Virus record (IMG/VR): IMGVR_UViG_2623620506_000009
Span: 1 to 34,002 of that record
Reading direction: 5' to 3' (one strand)
Length of the DNA stretch: 34,002 bases
Source: a virus
Lineage: Duplodnaviria > Heunggongvirae > Uroviricota > Caudoviricetes
Below are positions 3,825 to 33,060 of this stretch, one piece after another. The stretch's first letter is position 1. Every line of letters starts with the position of its first letter. The position numbers and the translations under genes were made by a program. The notes beneath the pieces were generated by a model that searched no databases, was not told the DNA's origin, and saw only the letters and a program-made list of their open reading frames with translations.

Positions 3825-4341
3825 CGGGACGCTCCGGCCAGTTGATGGAGTAAAAGGAGGCTTCGTCAGTAACGGTGCTTAAATCCAGTGCCTTTACCGC
3901 TTTGATATATGCCATCCACTGCGTAAGACGGGCTTTATCATCGTCGCTGATGGTGCCCAGCTCCAGCTCGGTTTTCCAGTCGGAGGTGATGTCCTTCGCT
4001 TCATTCAGCATGCTCTGGCGTTTTTTTTCTGCCAGTCGCGAGTAATCAACAGGAACCGGCAGCACTTCGCCGTCTTTGTAATACCAGCAGGCTTCAATGC
4101 CAAAACCTTCCGGCAGTTCATCCACTTCCACAATGGTGAAGCCAGCCGGGTAAAGACGGGACACGTCTTCCGCCATTGAATAAATCACGCCGCTTTCAGG
4201 GTGAATACACAATTTGTATTTCTTCGTGAATTTATCCAGTGATTCATAAAAATCCTGTCCGTCTTCACTGCGGAAATACTGAATATCCTTACCATAAGGC
4301 ATATTTTCCGGGTAATAACGCGAAACGTTTCTGAGTTCCAT
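3811..4341 (-). CDS. tail fiber assembly protein (Mu U / P2 G family)
   Basis: ATG at 4341 with AAGGAG SD (track ORF extends to 4377); 176 aa MELRNVSRYYPENMPYG...; C-terminal DDDKARLTQWMAYIKAVKALDLS resembles the conserved tail-fiber-assembly motif; directly follows the fiber gene. Confidence 0.7.
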   Translation of the reverse strand: MELRNVSRYYPENMPYGKDIQYFRSEDGQDFYESLDKFTKKYKLCIHPESGVIYSMAEDVSRLYPAGFTIVEVDELPEGFGIEACWYYKDGEVLPVPVDYSRLAEKKRQSMLNEAKDITSDWKTELELGTISDDDKARLTQWMAYIKAVKALDLSTVTDEASFYSINWPERPDAAA

Positions 4342-25424: not shown

Positions 25425-26021
25425 TCACCCCCGCGTGGCGGACATGATGCCCAGAGGGGTATCGATGATTTCCAGACAGGCGTCGGTCAGCTTTTCCATG
25501 CGGTTAAACCAGCCGTTCAGGTATTTGCCCTGGGCGGGTTTTGATTTGATGATGTCGGCATAAAAGCGGGAGCGACGGACAATACAGCGGGCCAGCAGCC
25601 AGTCAGGGGTGGACTGGCTCACGGCCTTGCGGGTACGCGGCCCGATGATGCCGTCAGCATCCACATCAGCGGCTTCCTGCAAAAGTTTGATAGCCTTTTT
25701 AACGCCATGCTGAACCGCCGCATCAAACACAAAAAGCGCCACGCCATCAGGCCACTGGTCACATCCGGCAGGCAGCCAGTAATCACGCAGGTAAATCTGT
25801 GCGGCCTGTTCGCGGGTTAAATCTTTGATGCGGGTATCCGGTTTACCGTCACCGTTGACATCGGTTTTGCCGTCAATCACACCGTCGCGGCGGTCAGAAA
25901 CGCCGTATTTGGTTTCGCCGCCACGGTCAGTGGAGTCATTGACATAGACGCCTTCGATATCGGGACGCAGAATGAAATTCAGCGCATGCTCAAAGGCCGG
26001 GGAGAATTTTTGATTTTCCAT
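25425..26021 (-). CDS. endolysin, glycoside hydrolase family 108 with C-terminal peptidoglycan-binding domain
   Basis: 198 aa; GH108 hallmarks GGETKYGV, YLRDYW, DGIIGPRTR; C-terminal NGWFNRMEKL region typical of the PG-binding module; AGGTG SD; first gene after the mor terminator. Confidence 0.85.
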   Translation of the reverse strand: MENQKFSPAFEHALNFILRPDIEGVYVNDSTDRGGETKYGVSDRRDGVIDGKTDVNGDGKPDTRIKDLTREQAAQIYLRDYWLPAGCDQWPDGVALFVFDAAVQHGVKKAIKLLQEAADVDADGIIGPRTRKAVSQSTPDWLLARCIVRRSRFYADIIKSKPAQGKYLNGWFNRMEKLTDACLEIIDTPLGIMSATRG

Positions 26022-26076
26022 AAAAACACCTGTGAAGCAGAGTTAAACGTGGTCTGCTTCATGGTGCCGGAGGCAT

Positions 26077-26102
26077 AAAAAAAGCCGGATTTACCGGCTT
26101 CA
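26077..26102 (-). terminator. rho-independent terminator of the early operon, directly after mor
   Basis: Minus-strand transcript TGAAGCCGG-TAAAT-CCGGCTTTTTTT begins 5 nt after the mor stop codon; identical 26 bp to 18356-18381. Confidence 0.65.
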
Positions 26103-26106
26103 TTGA

Positions 26107-26556
26107 TTAAGGGCGTCGTGGCGGACGACGAACGGGGTGAGGCAGGTTCGGGGAGGGGTAAAACAAATCCGGCTGGTATTTATTGCGCTCCAGACGTCGC
26201 ATCCGTTTGATGGCCTTGTAGACGGTTTTATACGTCACTCCGTAACGCTGAACCAGTTCAGGAATATTATGGCCGTTAAAATCACGCCAGATACGCATAT
26301 CCCGGACAAGATTCTCCAGAATATTCCCCCTCGGAACATAAACCTGCATCCCGCCGATATGGCGACAAATCGCCACAACCAGCTCAAGGGAATGAGCAGG
26401 GTCTGCGCCAATCCGGGCCAGCTCTTTACGCAGCAGTGCGTTCAGTTCAGAAAGTAACGCCGGATAAGCGGTGTTTTCCTGGTAATCATGAAGATATTCC
26501 AGAACGCTGTCGTCCCGGAGGTCTTCGAATAAATCCTGCTCTTTCATCTGTTTCAT
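26107..26556 (-). CDS. mor: Mor/C-family transcriptional activator (middle operon regulator Mor by synteny)
   Basis: 149 aa; conserved Mor core PALLSELNALLRKELARIGADPAHSLELVVAICRHIGGMQVYVPRG and C-terminal HTH YGVTYKTVYKAIKRMRRL; ATGA-coupled to gemA; followed by terminator. Confidence 0.85.
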   Translation of the reverse strand: MKQMKEQDLFEDLRDDSVLEYLHDYQENTAYPALLSELNALLRKELARIGADPAHSLELVVAICRHIGGMQVYVPRGNILENLVRDMRIWRDFNGHNIPELVQRYGVTYKTVYKAIKRMRRLERNKYQPDLFYPSPNLPHPVRRPPRRP

Positions 26557-27104
26557 ACAGCAATTCTCCCGCTGTTTCGTGCGCGGGCATACGCACTGGT
26601 CAGTGCATCATAGCCGCGCAGTTCCCGCCCGGATGGGCTTACAGGTAAAGGCACACCATGTCGGGCAAAGGCTTCACGGATGCAGCGCATGTGCCACTGT
26701 TTGAGCGTTTCGAGCACAACCTGCAACGATTCCCCGTGACACCATGCCAGCGTGGAAACACCCTGACCGCCATTACGTCTGGCCGTCAGGCGTTCAACGT
26801 ATTTGTCCAGCGCGGCGTCGCTGATATCGGATACGAAACCATCAAGAAACATCTGCTGCCAGATTTTATAAATCTTCTCGCGCGGTGTGACATGCCCCTT
26901 AAAGCGACGGCGGGGATGTTTATTCTGCTTTTTAAAACCGCGCTCTTTCATGGCATCGAGCACTTGTTCCAGTTGTGCAACGGACAGCTCGCGGCAACTG
27001 GTTTTGCCCGTGCACTGCACCAGAAAGGCGCGGTAAGTGTCATCGTCGAGGTGCAACTCCCGGCGGGCAACATGAATTAATTTAATCAGGGATGTGCGAC
27101 TCAT
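26553..27104 (-). CDS. gemA: GemA-like early protein (Mu gp16)
   Basis: ATG 27104 with AAGGAG SD (track ORF extends upstream); 183 aa MSRTSLIKLIHVARRELHLDDDTYRAFLVQ...; same length as Mu GemA; position before mor. Confidence 0.8.
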   Translation of the reverse strand: MSRTSLIKLIHVARRELHLDDDTYRAFLVQCTGKTSCRELSVAQLEQVLDAMKERGFKKQNKHPRRRFKGHVTPREKIYKIWQQMFLDGFVSDISDAALDKYVERLTARRNGGQGVSTLAWCHGESLQVVLETLKQWHMRCIREAFARHGVPLPVSPSGRELRGYDALTSAYARARNSGRIAV

Positions 27105-27471
27105 TTTGCCCCATCTCCTTAATGCAGTGTTTTTCGACCCATGCCACACGAGCAGAATTCAGGTGGCATCTGTCATGTAGGCATTCATCATGGTAGTGCA
27201 CGTTATCTACATTAAATGGCAGGGATTCATCCAGCCCACTCGCGACAAAATCCGCATGTAATTGTTCTAGCGCAGCCTCGCTGTCTGCTCCGATTGATTC
27301 AAAATAGTCATAAACATTGGCGCATAATCCGACTCCCCGAATAAACCCTTCCCCTTCCGTTTCTTGCGCTCCGTTTTTTAACCACTGGTTATAGGCGACA
27401 TAAAAATCATAAAGATGTTTTCTGGTGCTGGCGGATGCGGATTTAATTTCATTTTTCTCTGCGTTATTCAT
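27082..27471 (-). CDS. hypothetical early protein (129 aa), Cys/His-rich C-terminus
   Basis: ATG 27471 with GAGG SD; C-terminal HYHDECLHDRCHLNSARVAWVEKHC suggests metal binding; no family recognised. Confidence 0.55.
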   Translation of the reverse strand: MNNAEKNEIKSASASTRKHLYDFYVAYNQWLKNGAQETEGEGFIRGVGLCANVYDYFESIGADSEAALEQLHADFVASGLDESLPFNVDNVHYHDECLHDRCHLNSARVAWVEKHCIKEMGQNESHIPD

Positions 27472-27646
27472 TTCTTAATACCTCTTCGCAATAAAAGATT
27501 TCATTGGGATAATGTTTTTGTATGCGCTCCATCACCTGCATACATGCCTGCTCGGTGGGCCAGATTTTTTCCGTTACAGGGATGGCATCACAGGCATCAT
27601 TCCCGCAGGTGCCAACCAGCAGGACAAAGCCAATTGACTTAATCAT
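27464..27646 (-). CDS. small Cys-rich protein with N-terminal signal-like hydrophobic segment (60 aa)
   Basis: ATG 27646 (track ORF extends to 27742 with non-protein-like extension); MIKSIGFVLLVGTC... resembles a signal peptide/imperfect lipobox; 4 further Cys. Confidence 0.4.
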   Translation of the reverse strand: MIKSIGFVLLVGTCGNDACDAIPVTEKIWPTEQACMQVMERIQKHYPNEIFYCEEVLRNE

Positions 27647-28181
27647 GTTCACTGACTTCCTGTGTTGCGGCCGGAGCTGGTGAATAATCAAGAATGAGAT
27701 AGCGCATGACGTGGTCGGTGATATTCCAGCCACTGGAACCACAAATAAAGCGCCCCATCCGGATATCGATATACGCCATCACAAAACGGGGCATTCCCTG
27801 TTTGCACATCTCGTCATCCACTTCAGCAACGATGTAAACCGACTCGCAGGTCAGTACGCCTGTCGCAAATTCTTTTGCCAGTGCCGGAATGGCATTGCCT
27901 TCCAGCCAGGGCAAAGAGCGGCGGAACGCGCACCATTGAGCATCATCAACATCGGGGTGTTCCGTTGTTGCGTTTCGTCTTACTGGCGGCGTCGGACGAG
28001 GGCGCGGAACGTCATAAAATCCGTTGCATTCAGTGAGAACTCCGGCATCAACCGCATCACGCAGGAAATACACCATTGAGGAAGGTGGCATCTTCATTTT
28101 TTCAGCCAGAACGCCACAGGTCAGACGCCCGTAAGCCCGTAGTAATGTGCTGACACCGCTCAGAATTTTTGCATCAATCAT
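27639..28181 (-). CDS. hypothetical early protein (180 aa), possible N-terminal winged-helix domain
   Basis: ATG 28181; 97-nt gap after gam; N-terminal LRAYGRLTCGVLAEKMKMPPSSMVYFLRDAVDAGVL resembles a wHTH; no family recognised. Confidence 0.55.
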   Translation of the reverse strand: MIDAKILSGVSTLLRAYGRLTCGVLAEKMKMPPSSMVYFLRDAVDAGVLTECNGFYDVPRPRPTPPVRRNATTEHPDVDDAQWCAFRRSLPWLEGNAIPALAKEFATGVLTCESVYIVAEVDDEMCKQGMPRFVMAYIDIRMGRFICGSSGWNITDHVMRYLILDYSPAPAATQEVSEHD

Positions 28182-28278
28182 TTTTATTTCTCAGATATCA
28201 GATTCAGGCGCGAGCAATCCCCTGACGCATCGCGCCATAATTAAAAGAAAGTGAATTAATTAAATATGCGTGGTGGTA

Positions 28279-28803
28279 TTAAATACCGGCTTCCTGTTCA
28301 AACGGAATAATAGAAAAATCTTCAATACCTGATTTGACTGTAATTCCGGCAACACCTGCGACCGCTTTCGGTTCCAGTAAAATCGCCTCCTTGTTGATTT
28401 CCTGTTTCGTGCGAATAAAGCGTTGCAGGCCAAGACGCTCCAGCGTTTCCATCACCGCATCCATGCCGCGAATACTTACCGATGGTGGGCGCTGACGCCA
28501 TGACACATCACCGGTTACCAGGTTTGCCGTCTTCACCTTGCCGCCGTTCGTCAGTTCGTCACGGTTCGCTTCACACCATCCCTGAACGCCTTTTGAAAGG
28601 GTTTCGATACTGGTTTTAAGGGGCGCAATCTGTGAGGCGTATTTCTCAGTAATTTCAGCGATAGCGTCATTCATTTCCGTTTCAAGTCGTGCCGCTTCGC
28701 GTTGCAGGTCACCAATCCGGCGAATATCACACACCACGGCATCGCGGGATTGAGGAACATAAGCTGCTGCGGCACTCTTGATTCGTTTTGCTGGTTTAGC
28801 CAT
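28279..28803 (-). CDS. gam: host-nuclease inhibitor protein Gam (Ku-like DNA end-binding protein)
   Basis: 174 aa MAKPAKRIKSAAAAYVPQ...GVQGWCEANRDELTNGGKVKTANLVTGDVSWR...SGIEDFSIIPFEQEAGI; near-identical to recalled Mu Gam; AGGAG SD. Confidence 0.92.
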   Translation of the reverse strand: MAKPAKRIKSAAAAYVPQSRDAVVCDIRRIGDLQREAARLETEMNDAIAEITEKYASQIAPLKTSIETLSKGVQGWCEANRDELTNGGKVKTANLVTGDVSWRQRPPSVSIRGMDAVMETLERLGLQRFIRTKQEINKEAILLEPKAVAGVAGITVKSGIEDFSIIPFEQEAGI

Positions 28804-30094: not shown

Positions 30095-31033
30095 TTACGT
30101 GCGCAGCAGGGTTGAAATATCAACGTCCAGGTCTAATTCACGGAAAGCCTGACGCAGATAATCTTCATTAACACGTTCACCTTTGCCGTGGGCAGTCATG
30201 GCCGCAAGGCGCAGCGAGTGGTTCAGGATGCGAAGCGCACCTGGTTTTTGTGCAATCTGCTGTAATAATTCCCGCTCGTTTTCGCCGGTAATTTGCCAGG
30301 CATCCGCAATGGCTTTTACATCGTCAATTTTGGTTTTATTAATTGCCGTCCGCTTTGCAATACGGGAAAACAGGCGGGCAAATTCAACCGTTCTGTTACC
30401 ACCGGTCATGTTTGAATAAACACGGTGATTCCCCATCAGAACAAGGCCAATACGGGCAGACTCCTGTAACAGGCGGAGTTCTTCCAGAACCTCAGCGCCA
30501 AGATGATCAGCTTCGTCGATAATGACCAGCCCCTGCGTACCTTCAAGGCGGCGTCGCAAAGCGCGGGAGAGCGGCCCTTTGCGGCGCGGTGCGTCATTCA
30601 TTCCCAGCTCATAAGCCAGTTCAGTGAGACATTCCAGAACACTGGCGCAGGATGGTGTAATGGTGATCATCCAGACATTGTTATTGGTGCGACGAAATTC
30701 GCGGGCCGCTTCAGTTTTCCCCACACCTGGATTACCGCAGATAACAGAAATACTTTCAGTCAGGCTGGCAAAACGCATACTCGTCCAGATTTGACGTGCT
30801 GTTCTGGTTTCCACAAAACGCGGGGGTTCTGGCAGCTCTGCGGCGCGGTGATAGTTCTCCAGCCAGCGTTCCAGTGTCTGCGCGACACGGTCATTGTCGC
30901 CGTTGTACTTGTTATTCACGAATGCGCTTAACGTTCCTGCGGCCACGCCGGACTCGCGGGCAATTTGTGCATAAGTTGTTTTTTCACTTTCTACAAGCGT
31001 GCGCAGTCCTGTGCGAATATCGGAAATATTCAT
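30095..31033 (-). CDS. B: transposition ATPase / target DNA activator B (MuB)
   Basis: 312 aa; [15 protein letters not shown]..., Walker A GNPGVGKT, Walker [11 protein letters not shown]; near-identical to recalled Mu B; GAGG SD. Confidence 0.93.
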
Positions 31034-31071: not shown

Positions 31072-33060
31072 TTAAATGGCTTTTTTACGTCTGTTCTGTT
31101 CCAGAATATCCAGCGAATGATTCAGATATTCATCACGATCAGTTTCATATTCATCATCGGGTTCCTGGTATTTCACCTGCACCGTGTTACCGGAAGGCCG
31201 GAAAATACCAACAACCCTTGATTCTGGCGCTGCTGGTTCGGCTATCTGCGGCAGCAGTTCAGCAACTTCCAGCGCGTCCATTTGCTTCTGCGCCTTAATG
31301 GCTGCTTTAGTTGCAGATTTCAGTTGTTTCTGGCGGCGGCGATATTCACGACCTGCCGCAGCATCATTAAATGCAACAGGGGCCAGACATTCCGCTTCAC
31401 AGATAAACCGACCGTCCAGGGTGTAGCAATAAACCGTGCTGTGTAGCTGCTGTGGATCAAACCTGACCACAACTTTTTTCACTCCGGCATTCATTAATGC
31501 CATGTTGTAATAAACGTTTTTCGCGCCTTTAAGGGAGCCGCCAACTTTAAGCGTAAACTCGCCTTTGCGTGAAACGTTCACCGCCTCAGCAGGCAGTAAC
31601 AGCATCCGTTTTTGTTCTTCGGTTGGCTTACGCACAATCGTTCTGGCGTATTCACGCTCGAAAACATCATCAAACGAGAGTTTGCCCCCGCACATTTCTG
31701 TTTCACGTCCTGTTCTGGCATTGAACATCGCCACACCTTCGGCAAGGGTTTTCAGAAACAGCTCTGCATCAACAGCACGGTCGCCATAGTTATCAGGTTT
31801 TGCCTGCGGATTTGGCCCCGTATATGCACCAGCCAGTGCCGGATGCTTATCAACGTATTCCTCAAGCCCACCAACACCGAAAGCACGTTCAACAGGTTTT
31901 GCCTGGCCCCAGCCTTTACCGGCAACAACGCTTGTCCAGTGCATTTTCGCGCCCATCAGTAAAAACAGTCCCTTTGGATCGTCCTCTTTCACCTTAAAGC
32001 GGTAGCGATTGGGCGCGCCCCCCGTCAGCCATTTATTCGCTGCACCACGGGTGTTATCAATGGTGATGTGAAAATCCTCCGGGATGCCGTAGCGTGTCAC
32101 CACATCCATGAACGAGAGGCGAATTGAATCGATGTTCTCGCTTACATCGCAGCGCCAGCCCAGAATTTTTCGGGTTTTCACATCCTGCCAGAACCATGTT
32201 TTCGGGCGGATCACATCGCCGTTAAACCAGCGTACAAAGACGTTATGCAGATAACCGTCGCCGTTGATCCACTGCATGGCGTCCAGGTGTTCCACAGTTC
32301 GCTGCTGTGCCGGTATCAGATGCATCAGTGCATGTTCACCTTCACGGCAGGCAACAACCATTGCCTCATCCAGTTGCTGAATCCGGCGAAAGGCCGTGGC
32401 ACGGGAGGGAATACTCCAGCCATGCTCGCGGGCTGCCAGCTCCAGACGCTCATAACATTTGCGGAAGGCGGGTTTTTCTGGTCGCAGATAATCTGCAATC
32501 AGAAACTGCCAGGCATCCTCGTCAAATTCACTTTTGTGAACATTGCGACGAGATGCACCACGTCCATCAACAAGTGCTGCCGCCCAGTCAGGCTTCGCAA
32601 ACTTCTGTACCTGGTAATACTTGTCCCGCAAAGTGGATGCGCTGACCTGGTAATGCCCTGCAACGGTCGCAAAAGCCGTTTTCGTTGAAATCCCCTGGTT
32701 CAGCATTTCGTCTGCAGCCTGAACCGCAGGCAACCATTTTTCAGCAAGTCTGCGCTGGGAATTGCTGGCGTTATCCCATTTGCTCCACAGTGCCTCACGA
32801 TCATAATCATGGGCTTCCAGCGTGGGGCGGGCGATTTCAAAACGGCCCTGGCTTGTTTCAATACCTCCTTGTTGCAATAAAATTTCAGCACGTAATGCAA
32901 CAGGAAATGATTTGATATTGAATTCAAATGATACACCTTTAGTACCTGTAACTTGCCTAAACACCCAGCCTTCTCTTTGTGCCTTACGTGTAATGTTAGT
33001 TGCTTGCTTTGGCAAACCAGCAAAACCAAGCAATTCTTTCGCTGTATACCACTCTTTCAT
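31072..33060 (-). CDS. A: DDE transposase A (MuA), D108-type N-terminus
   Basis: 662 aa; from about residue 70 ([26 protein letters not shown]...) matches recalled Mu A through the catalytic core and C-terminus (...[19 protein letters not shown]); N-terminal 70 aa differ from Mu as in D108. Confidence 0.95.

Follow-up and report, generated by a model that had tools for sequence, protein, structure and literature searches.

A Mu gp11 ortholog and an exchangeable two-gene cassette lie between gam and gemA in a Mu-like Escherichia coli prophage

The IMG/VR virus record IMGVR_UViG_2623620506_000009 (positions 1 to 34,002; this whole stretch of 34,002 nucleotides is referred to as the window) represents a Mu-like prophage of E. 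coli with its early genes on the minus strand, and the analysis presented here deals with three open reading frames (ORFs) located between its gam and gemA genes. These encode proteins of 180 amino acids (aa), 60 aa and 129 aa. The 180-aa protein is the ortholog of Mu gp11 and a conserved component of the early region; the genes for the 60-aa and 129-aa proteins form a replaceable cassette. A conserved gp11 combined with an exchangeable two-gene cassette, including the mechanisms proposed below for the individual proteins, is considered the best overall explanation of the data and moderately probable as a whole.

Three overlapping genes between gam and gemA

The three minus-strand ORFs reported between gam and gemA in an initial annotation of the window were recovered at the same positions. 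The first gene past the gam-gp11 spacer encodes the Mu gp11 ortholog of 180 aa (27639-28181), the second, with an ATG start, a four-Cys mini-protein of 60 aa (27464-27646; phrog_16556, E 1.8e-27), and the third an acidic all-alpha protein of 129 aa that resembles N4 gp3 (27082-27471; phrog_6418 and phrog_2510). The genes for the 180-aa and 60-aa proteins overlap by 8 nt (ATGATTAA), as do those for the 60-aa and 129-aa proteins (ATGAATAA), so that three co-oriented, head-to-tail overlapping ORFs are seen, which are translationally coupled early genes. No consensus sigma-70 promoter or terminator was found between the three genes on the coding strand, and by analogy with Mu the stretch is regarded as part of a long early (Pe-type) operon. 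In AF083977, a 'semi-early promoter' is annotated in the non-coding gap upstream of Mu gemA; there is no room for such a gap in the window (27082-27149) because gemA overlaps the 129-aa gene by 23 nt.

All three proteins are named 'hypothetical protein' in databases, and Mu can lose the region and keep its viability (PMC3325207), which would be in line with decayed or spurious frames in a defective prophage. When the genes were compared with those of the diverged UMNF18 prophage, the ratios of nonsynonymous to synonymous substitution rates (dN/dS) were 0.18 (180 aa), 0.10 (60 aa) and 0.29 (129 aa), and the three ORFs are therefore maintained protein-coding genes under purifying selection. Furthermore, none of the frames is interrupted and the start and stop codons of successive genes overlap, proteins identical to the 60-aa and 129-aa sequences are encoded on 194 and 184 contigs, respectively, and all three proteins have big families of homologs, each matching a PHROG family with E values from 1e-27 to 1e-102. 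Decayed or spurious frames are thus extremely improbable, and this explanation is effectively refuted. The same three genes are annotated by RefSeq in a 98%-identical E. coli prophage. Their GC contents (0.517 for the 180-aa, 0.437 for the 60-aa and 0.446 for the 129-aa gene, versus 0.576 in the late region) agree with the initial annotation, which had described the region as more AT-rich than the structural genes.

Similarity of the 180-aa protein to Mu gp11

None of the three proteins had been assigned to a family in the initial annotation, and the 180-aa protein had been considered an accessory ORF; for this protein both statements turned out to be wrong. It shows 87% identity to Mu gp11, also known as Mup11 and earlier as E10-E12, in a collinear alignment (residues 1-177 versus 1-176) that includes the N-terminal domain, matches phrog_1949 with an E value of 3e-102 (profile positions 1-174 of 176) and contains the Pfam domain PF25754 Gp11_C ('Phage Mu Gp11 C-terminal domain'; E 1.2e-38, 131.8 bits with a cutoff of 27) over profile positions 1-78 of 78. 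A score above the Pfam gathering threshold, full-length collinearity and an operon place after gam or DUF5420, the features by which members of the Mu gp11 family were recognized, were all found. A word-indexed search gave 221 gp11 homologs; identity was at least 58% among the 120 listed, and among the matches listed those with a named host came from E. coli or Salmonella, the rest being unnamed and all of them being called hypothetical. In a Salmonella Mu-like prophage (L100), the series DUF5420-gp11-gp12 is kept though a DUF3164 gene replaces gam. Because gp11 is kept in E. coli and Salmonella prophages with changed neighbors, it is a conserved early gene outside the variable set rather than an accessory one. 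According to the initial annotation, clear similarity to a Mu early protein with an established housekeeping role would speak against its view of the region; gp11 is not such a protein, because it has no defined function.

The two-domain organization proposed initially, a winged helix-turn-helix-like N-terminus followed by a C-terminal domain, proved correct. In the AlphaFold2 (AF2) model, which has a mean predicted local distance difference test score (pLDDT) of 67, an N-terminal domain with three helices, a disordered linker and an alpha/beta C-terminal domain can be distinguished. The winged-helix domain (residues 1-57; 28011-28181, minus strand) folds as a three-helix bundle plus wing in the model, with a net charge of 0 and an isoelectric point of 6.1, and DNA binding is therefore plausible but not assured, as the N-terminal domain has no net positive charge. 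The Pro/Arg-rich linker (residues 58-87; 27921-28010, minus strand) has pLDDT values below 50 and corresponds to a variable, gapped alignment block. The C-terminal domain (residues 91-168; 27678-27911, minus strand), delimited by the extent of the Gp11_C match, is predicted to adopt an alpha-beta-alpha-beta-beta-beta arrangement with pLDDT values of 64-92; sequence and profile searches revealed no relative of this domain in the PDB. gp11 could be a two-domain adaptor whose winged helix would touch nucleic acid or a partner protein and whose flexible linker would tether it to the family-specific alpha/beta domain. A role of such an adaptor in DNA transactions, early during lytic growth, is a tentative proposal, held with somewhat less than even confidence.

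The intergenic spacer between gam and gp11 (97 bp; 28182-28278, minus strand) was aligned with its counterparts in Mu, D108, SfMu and two E. coli prophages. It is about 90% conserved among them and the window prophage, a value similar to or higher than that for the flanking genes, which are roughly 85% identical to those of Mu, and stays conserved where the downstream gene is DUF5420 instead of gp11. Within it, an invariant hairpin stem, GGCGCGA-N16-TCGCGCC, encloses a variable loop (28207-28236, minus strand). A structured RNA was considered for the spacer and rejected, as no Rfam match was obtained and folding was no better than that of shuffled sequences (z -1.3).

A conserved, hairpin-bearing spacer just upstream of gp11 offers a candidate target site, and together with the modeled winged-helix fold and the conservation of gp11 in E. 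coli and Salmonella Mu-like prophages whatever the flanking cassettes, it suggests that gp11 might be a phage housekeeping regulator, that is, a sequence-specific DNA binder that tunes early transcription or replicative transposition of Mu. This is judged somewhat unlikely. The N-terminal domain is not basic, the spacer is not tied to gp11 because it is equally conserved upstream of DUF5420 in SfMu, and any such role would be dispensable because Mu without the semi-essential region infects and lysogenises (PMC3325207).

At the 5' end of gp11 (window 28104-28203), a dip in identity to about 87% was observed in all three close prophages compared, the sequence around the dip being 94-100% identical in these prophages.

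Exchange of genes between gp11 and gemA

Different sets of genes were found in the interval from gp11 to gemA when Mu, D108, SfMu and several prophages of E. coli and Salmonella were compared, which bears out the initial view that this is a variable portion of the semi-essential early region of Mu. The genes for the 60-aa and 129-aa proteins fill the slot that is held by gp12-gp13-gp14-gp15 in Mu, and neither protein has a homolog among Mu proteins according to BLAST or hhalign. D108 and a Yersinia Mu-like phage carry the Mu-type gene set in this slot, and in SfMu a DUF5420 gene is inserted after gam. E. coli 06-00048 has the order gam-gp11-[60-aa gene]-[gp14-like gene]-gemA, and E. coli OZ040490 the order gam-DUF5420-gp11-[231-aa fusion]-[102-aa ORF]-gp14-gemA. 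The 231-aa fusion (L012, 2319-3014) consists of an N-terminal segment of about 55 aa, the domain of the 129-aa protein (82% identity) and the zinc ribbon of Mu gp13 (93% identity), an architecture that corresponds to the 231-position profile of phrog_6418; Mu early ORFs are therefore shuffled as sub-gene modules. The slot before GemA in the Salmonella prophage L100 is filled by four unrelated ORFs of 183, 109, 249 and 88 aa.

The limits of the exchanged segment were located by sliding identity. Relative to 06-00048, homology is lost between about 27470 and 27104, which are two gene junctions, the one between the 60-aa and 129-aa genes and the start of gemA; relative to UMNF18, identity is as low as 70% only in the core of the 129-aa gene. 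A survey of 5426 complete E. coli genomes revealed the two-gene cassette in full in 10 of them and a partial match, in most cases to the 60-aa gene only, in 38 more; the Mu-type cassette occurs in 26-41. Remote homologies were sought with hhalign between the 129-aa family and Mu gp12, between the 60-aa family and Mu gp13, and between the 60-aa family and the N-terminal 60 residues of the 231-aa fusion; all three were rejected with probabilities below 4%.

The 129-aa protein and the N4 gp3-like family

The 129-aa protein matches phrog_6418 (E 1.9e-49) and phrog_2510 (E 3e-29), and a hidden Markov model (HMM) of its family matches N4 gp3 with an E value of 1.9e-25. In a profile search of 1.84 billion cluster representatives (E ≤ 1e-3), 926 relatives were detected that cover residues ~18-116, and the conserved core of about 100 aa, defined by the extent of these family matches, corresponds to 27124-27420 (minus strand). 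The domain exists as stand-alone proteins of about 100-115 aa, as tandem repeats and as a module in mosaic prophage proteins, where it is fused to a dATP/dGTP pyrophosphohydrolase, DUF7415, DUF551 or Lar. When 108 family members and 44 multidomain relatives were scanned with Pfam, only the fusion partners were recognized and no model for the domain itself was found. Likewise, no sequence, profile or fold similarity of the 129-aa protein to any PDB structure was detected.

In the phage collection, the domain is present in 219 records. In N4 it corresponds to gp3, which belongs to the early left end of the genome, and N4-like phages have it at the left end as well. A relative with 53% identity is located after the cI-cro-ydaT-replication genes of a lambdoid prophage. 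In phAPEC8 (L003, 9776-20081), five paralogs are scattered among small hypothetical genes within 10 kb.

The AF2 model of the 129-aa protein is confident (pLDDT 89.4) and contains five helices. The motifs G48-L49-C50 and P85-F86 do not vary across the family, conservation reaches 99% at W30, N105 and R108, and for Y93 and E96 it amounts to 91%; the family residues G-L-C, P-F(-N), N105, R108 and W111 are all present in the protein from the window. A Cys/His cluster had been pointed out in this protein by the initial annotation, but H92, H94, C97 and H99 are not conserved in the family, and around the cluster partial conservation is limited to C102 (65%) and H103 (82%). At position 103, 11% of the members have Tyr, as do, apparently, all three repeats of a tandem protein, which speaks against a Cys-His enzyme; this reading and that of a MazG-like enzyme were rejected, the EExxE motif being absent. 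Anti-Tmn of Dhillonvirus was also considered for the family and rejected, as its described fold (helices plus a three-stranded sheet) is different (PMC11846954).

The protein has a net charge of -12, the family not being uniformly acidic, and its gene is far more diverged from its UMNF18 counterpart (dS 0.56, dN 0.16) than the neighboring genes. The 129-aa protein might be a compact acidic helical binding module from a diversifying early-gene family, which would titrate or inhibit a host protein early in infection, a proposal in which our confidence is evenly balanced.

The 60-aa protein and its chromosomal homologs

The 60-aa protein contains four Cys residues (C14, C19, C35 and C53; C-x4-C-x15-C-x17-C) rather than the five counted initially. 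They are invariant in phage and chromosomal members, with fixed spacing (+5, +21, +39). Homologs from temperate Yersinia and Aeromonas phages lie in operons with recombination genes (Erf/SSB or RecE/RecT), excisionase and integrase, and temperate Hafnia phages carry homologs, too. In a scan of one genome per species, 93 relatives were found, and the best 80 of these are almost all from Erwiniaceae (Pantoea, Erwinia, Tatumella, Rosenbergiella, Mixta), with two from Yersinia and two from Enterobacter. Two small ORFs and OsmC, none of them phage genes, recur as its neighbors at 48-54 of the 80 loci, and at 37-41 loci a flavin mononucleotide (FMN)-dependent dehydrogenase and a GntR regulator are also present; the shared non-phage neighbors therefore indicate vertical inheritance of the chromosomal Cys4 gene. 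The 60-aa protein is, as far as can be judged from its sequence, a phage copy of a bacterial chromosomal gene. At the chromosomal loci (L020-L099), the Cys4 gene is located at about 4001-4170, encodes 56-66 aa and is named in no source; the consensus of its products is MLIGFVLLVSACG.DACDALPV...C...LLCGEV.R. At many chromosomal loci, a stop codon 12-15 codons upstream fixes the start of the gene. Among 57 distinct proteins, the N-terminal segment MLIGFVLLVSAC is 98-100% invariant and positions 27-49 are 37-95% conserved.

With respect to metal binding, the four conserved Cys ligands of a zinc ribbon are present and the two CxxC-type knuckles are missing; no Pfam zinc-ribbon match was obtained for the 60-aa protein, and it is unrelated to the zinc ribbon of Mu gp13. 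The protein could form a cytoplasmic beta-alpha-beta unit that brings the four Cys to one edge, an arrangement that would suit a metal site. A cytoplasmic mini-protein whose four clustered Cys hold a metal (Zn or an Fe-S cluster) is proposed, with the chances for and against it taken as about equal.

The initial annotation had seen a signal-like segment and a possible periplasmic or superinfection-exclusion factor in this protein. Accordingly, it was considered whether it might be a small exported lipoprotein in which Cys14 is lipidated after cleavage by signal peptidase II and which has a role in the envelope, superinfection exclusion of the kind exerted by T5 Llp or phi80 Cor being one example. 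The N-terminus is hydrophobic and directly followed by an invariant Cys, the lipobox pattern fits in the Yersinia phage and Tatumella homologs, and L-V-S-A-C is found at 78 of the 80 chromosomal loci, a statistic that is biased at position -1 because the scan pattern forced Thr or Ala there. Under the Lol rule, Gly at position +2 is compatible with sorting to the outer membrane, so that the Gly at this position would permit it. In contrast, the window protein has L-V-G-T-C with Thr at -1, where Ala, Gly or Ser is expected, and the Aeromonas phage homolog has Pro. PROSITE rule PS51257 places the Cys at position 15-35, and it is found at 14 or 12 in all four divergent members inspected; Lys or Arg occurs within the first seven residues only in the window protein (K3), the homologs lacking either in the N-terminal region; and none of the four members agrees with all three parts of the rule. 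The stretch ahead of the first Cys comprises only 11-13 residues, three Cys would be left in the mature protein, and the 98-100% invariant N-terminus contrasts with cleaved signal peptides, which normally vary most.

The short N-terminus and the mismatch with the PROSITE lipoprotein rule weaken the periplasmic reading, and so do the conservation of this N-terminus, which exceeds that of any other part of the protein, and the syntenic chromosomal location of the family in Erwiniaceae. A cleaved signal peptide is unlikely because none of the four members agrees with PS51257 in full and the N-terminus is near-invariant; the lipoprotein reading keeps some weight because chromosomal members carry the canonical L-V-S-A-C box. 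Overall, an exported lipoprotein, including the superinfection-exclusion role given as an example, is considered distinctly unlikely, and the cytoplasmic metal-holding mini-protein is preferred.

Possible roles in host takeover and counter-defence

The semi-essential early region of Mu comprises 14 ORFs, for which functions are mostly missing (PMC3325207; PMC8705779). It forms one transcript with A and B and specifies host-harming functions (PMC3325207; PMC8705779), which have been recognised for decades, yet roles have been assigned to few ORFs (PMC3325207, PMC3820752), and the ORFs of its variable part are called largely uncharacterised (PMC3820752, PMC3325207). When the entire region is deleted from Mu, infection and lysogenisation still occur and host survival after infection is better (PMC3325207). 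A role of the cassette in host takeover or anti-defence, which the initial annotation had raised for the region, is purely a matter of inference. Similarity searches with the PADLOC defence-system models gave no match at E ≤ 1 for any of the three proteins. Searches of NCBIfam and of PDB sequences and profiles were empty for all three, Pfam returned only Gp11_C, and similarity to structurally characterised anti-defence proteins in the PDB was not found, no dedicated anti-defence profile library being searched. In the literature on Mu gp11, Mup11-14, N4 gp3, these PHROG families and an 'arm' function, nothing relevant was found.

It is nevertheless conceivable that the two genes are a counter-defence cassette, in which the 129-aa protein, the 60-aa protein or both would inhibit an anti-phage system and complement the block of RecBCD by Gam. 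The location in a variable early region beside gam, with recombination junctions at gene boundaries, is in line with this, as are several properties of the 129-aa protein: its gene is much more diverged than its neighbors, lytic phages carry its family in multiple copies amid small hypothetical genes, N4-like phages have it in the early region at their left end, a Lar restriction-alleviation domain is attached to one relative, and the protein is acidic. However, the 129-aa protein is unlike any solved structure, characterised anti-defence proteins included, dN/dS values below 0.3 give no signal of positive selection, and the 60-aa protein is near-invariant and vertically inherited in Erwiniaceae, which is not the pattern of an arms race. 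A counter-defence cassette is therefore considered unlikely. Even less probable is a combined reading, in which an early effector of 129 aa and a captured metalloprotein of 60 aa would form an exchangeable host-manipulation cassette of Mu-like phages. Under this reading, the 129-aa protein would stand for a large family of early phage effectors in which Cys50, N105 and R108 form the site needed to neutralise a host protein or an immune system, and the 60-aa protein would be a captured bacterial Cys4 metalloprotein that hijacks the cellular partner of the bacterial protein.

The explanation preferred here, a conserved gp11 with an exchangeable two-gene cassette and the mechanisms suggested for each protein, has to be weighed against several points that count against it. 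The functions suggested for the three proteins are predictions, all database names are 'hypothetical protein', and expression from an early promoter is an assumption taken over from Mu. Confidence in the gp11 model is only moderate, and a net charge of 0 is atypical for a DNA-binding winged helix. In the 129-aa protein, the invariant Cys50 together with N105 and R108 could mark an active site instead of a binding module. For the 60-aa protein, the Cys spacing departs from the standard pattern of zinc ribbons, the proposed grouping of the four Cys is a matter of predicted topology, and the canonical L-V-S-A-C lipobox is present in chromosomal homologs.

Setting within the prophage

In the window, MuA (31072-33060) and MuB (30095-31033) are followed downstream by homologs of kil, gp7, gp8, gp9 and Gam, which are 74-94% identical to the Mu proteins, and the gene order of the early region (kil, gp7, gp8, gp9, Gam, gp11, GemA) matches the B-side order of Mu, with 82-94% identity to the Mu proteins in that comparison. 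The stretch from gam to mor shows 98% identity to prophages of bovine E. coli strains and about 85% identity to Mu, D108, SfMu and Mu-like phages of Yersinia, whose matches cover only 73% of it. On the left, the three genes are flanked by gam (28279-28803, minus strand; Pfam Phage_Mu_Gam, E 8.7e-44; 94% identical to Mu Gam) and on the right by gemA (26553-27104, minus strand; Pfam GemA, E 1.4e-32; 183 aa in the RefSeq model). The start of gemA is the ATG at 27104, preceded by AAGGAG, and not the GTG at 27149 with which the longest mechanical ORF begins; aligned with Mu GemA, the long ORF matches from its residue 16 onward, which favors the ATG. Further downstream (25425-26556), mor (149 aa; 129 aa in Mu) is directly followed by an endolysin of glycoside hydrolase family 108 (GH108); in Mu, this place downstream of mor is taken by gp18-gp20, the late activator C and the lysozyme of Mu itself. 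The late half of the window prophage appears different from that of Mu because the GH108 endolysin comes directly after mor.

Significance and comparison with known systems

The three proteins all belong to families without known function and are typical phage 'dark matter', not a new kind of system. In the present analysis, gp11 is told apart from the exchangeable slot and the recombination junctions are mapped; the 129-aa ORF is tied to a helical domain of the N4 gp3 type, which is represented by about 900 clusters and absent from Pfam and the PDB, and the 60-aa ORF to a near-invariant chromosomal mini-protein of Erwiniaceae. The outcome consists of concrete and cheap experimental targets; it includes no new mechanism and should be no surprise for a phage specialist.

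T5 Llp and Cor of phi80 and N15 are small phage lipoproteins that block a receptor, and Mu-type phages use lipopolysaccharide (LPS), not FhuA, as receptor. Like Llp and Cor, which serve as a functional analogy only, the 60-aa protein is small, is encoded outside the structural genes and has a hydrophobic N-terminus followed by a Cys; unlike them, it does not fit the signal criteria for lipoproteins, and it has no sequence similarity to them. Its closest counterpart is the Erwiniaceae Cys4 protein (56-66 aa; for example, Tatumella saanichensis WP_029686408.1), with which it shares 52-59% identity, the spacing of the four Cys, the hydrophobic N-terminus and the C-terminal motif at the fourth Cys (C-G-E-V-x-R, in the window protein C-E-E-V-L-R). 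The two differ in that the window protein starts with MIKS instead of ML and has G-T instead of S-A before the first Cys, and in that the Erwiniaceae gene is chromosomal and syntenic with OsmC, the FMN-dependent dehydrogenase and the GntR regulator, whereas the window copy resides in a prophage.

The 129-aa protein shares with N4 gp3 and with phrog_6418 and phrog_2510 a domain of about 100 aa and the motifs G-L-C, P-F-N and N-x2-R-x2-W, and its predicted five-helix fold matches BFVD models of the family with template modeling (TM) scores of 0.66-0.78. In comparison with N4 gp3 and the PHROG families, it has an additional N-terminal helix of 17 residues and a C-terminal tail whose coding sequence overlaps gemA, and it is without the flanking domains of the 231-aa architecture of phrog_6418. 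Its gene is single copy in the window, whereas phAPEC8 has five copies.

The cassette occupies the same operon slot as Mu gp12-gp15 (Mu_12, Mu_13, Mu_14 and Mu_54; Mu and D108), and in both cases small genes are tightly packed. Mu gp13, like the mini-protein of the window, has 60 aa and is Cys-rich, whereas the window has two genes instead of four, shows no homology to the Mu genes by BLAST or hhalign and is without the non-coding gap before gemA. Compared with Mu gp11, finally, the 180-aa protein is four residues longer and differs slightly in the linker and the C-terminal tail, and it shares with it both the place after gam and the conserved upstream spacer.

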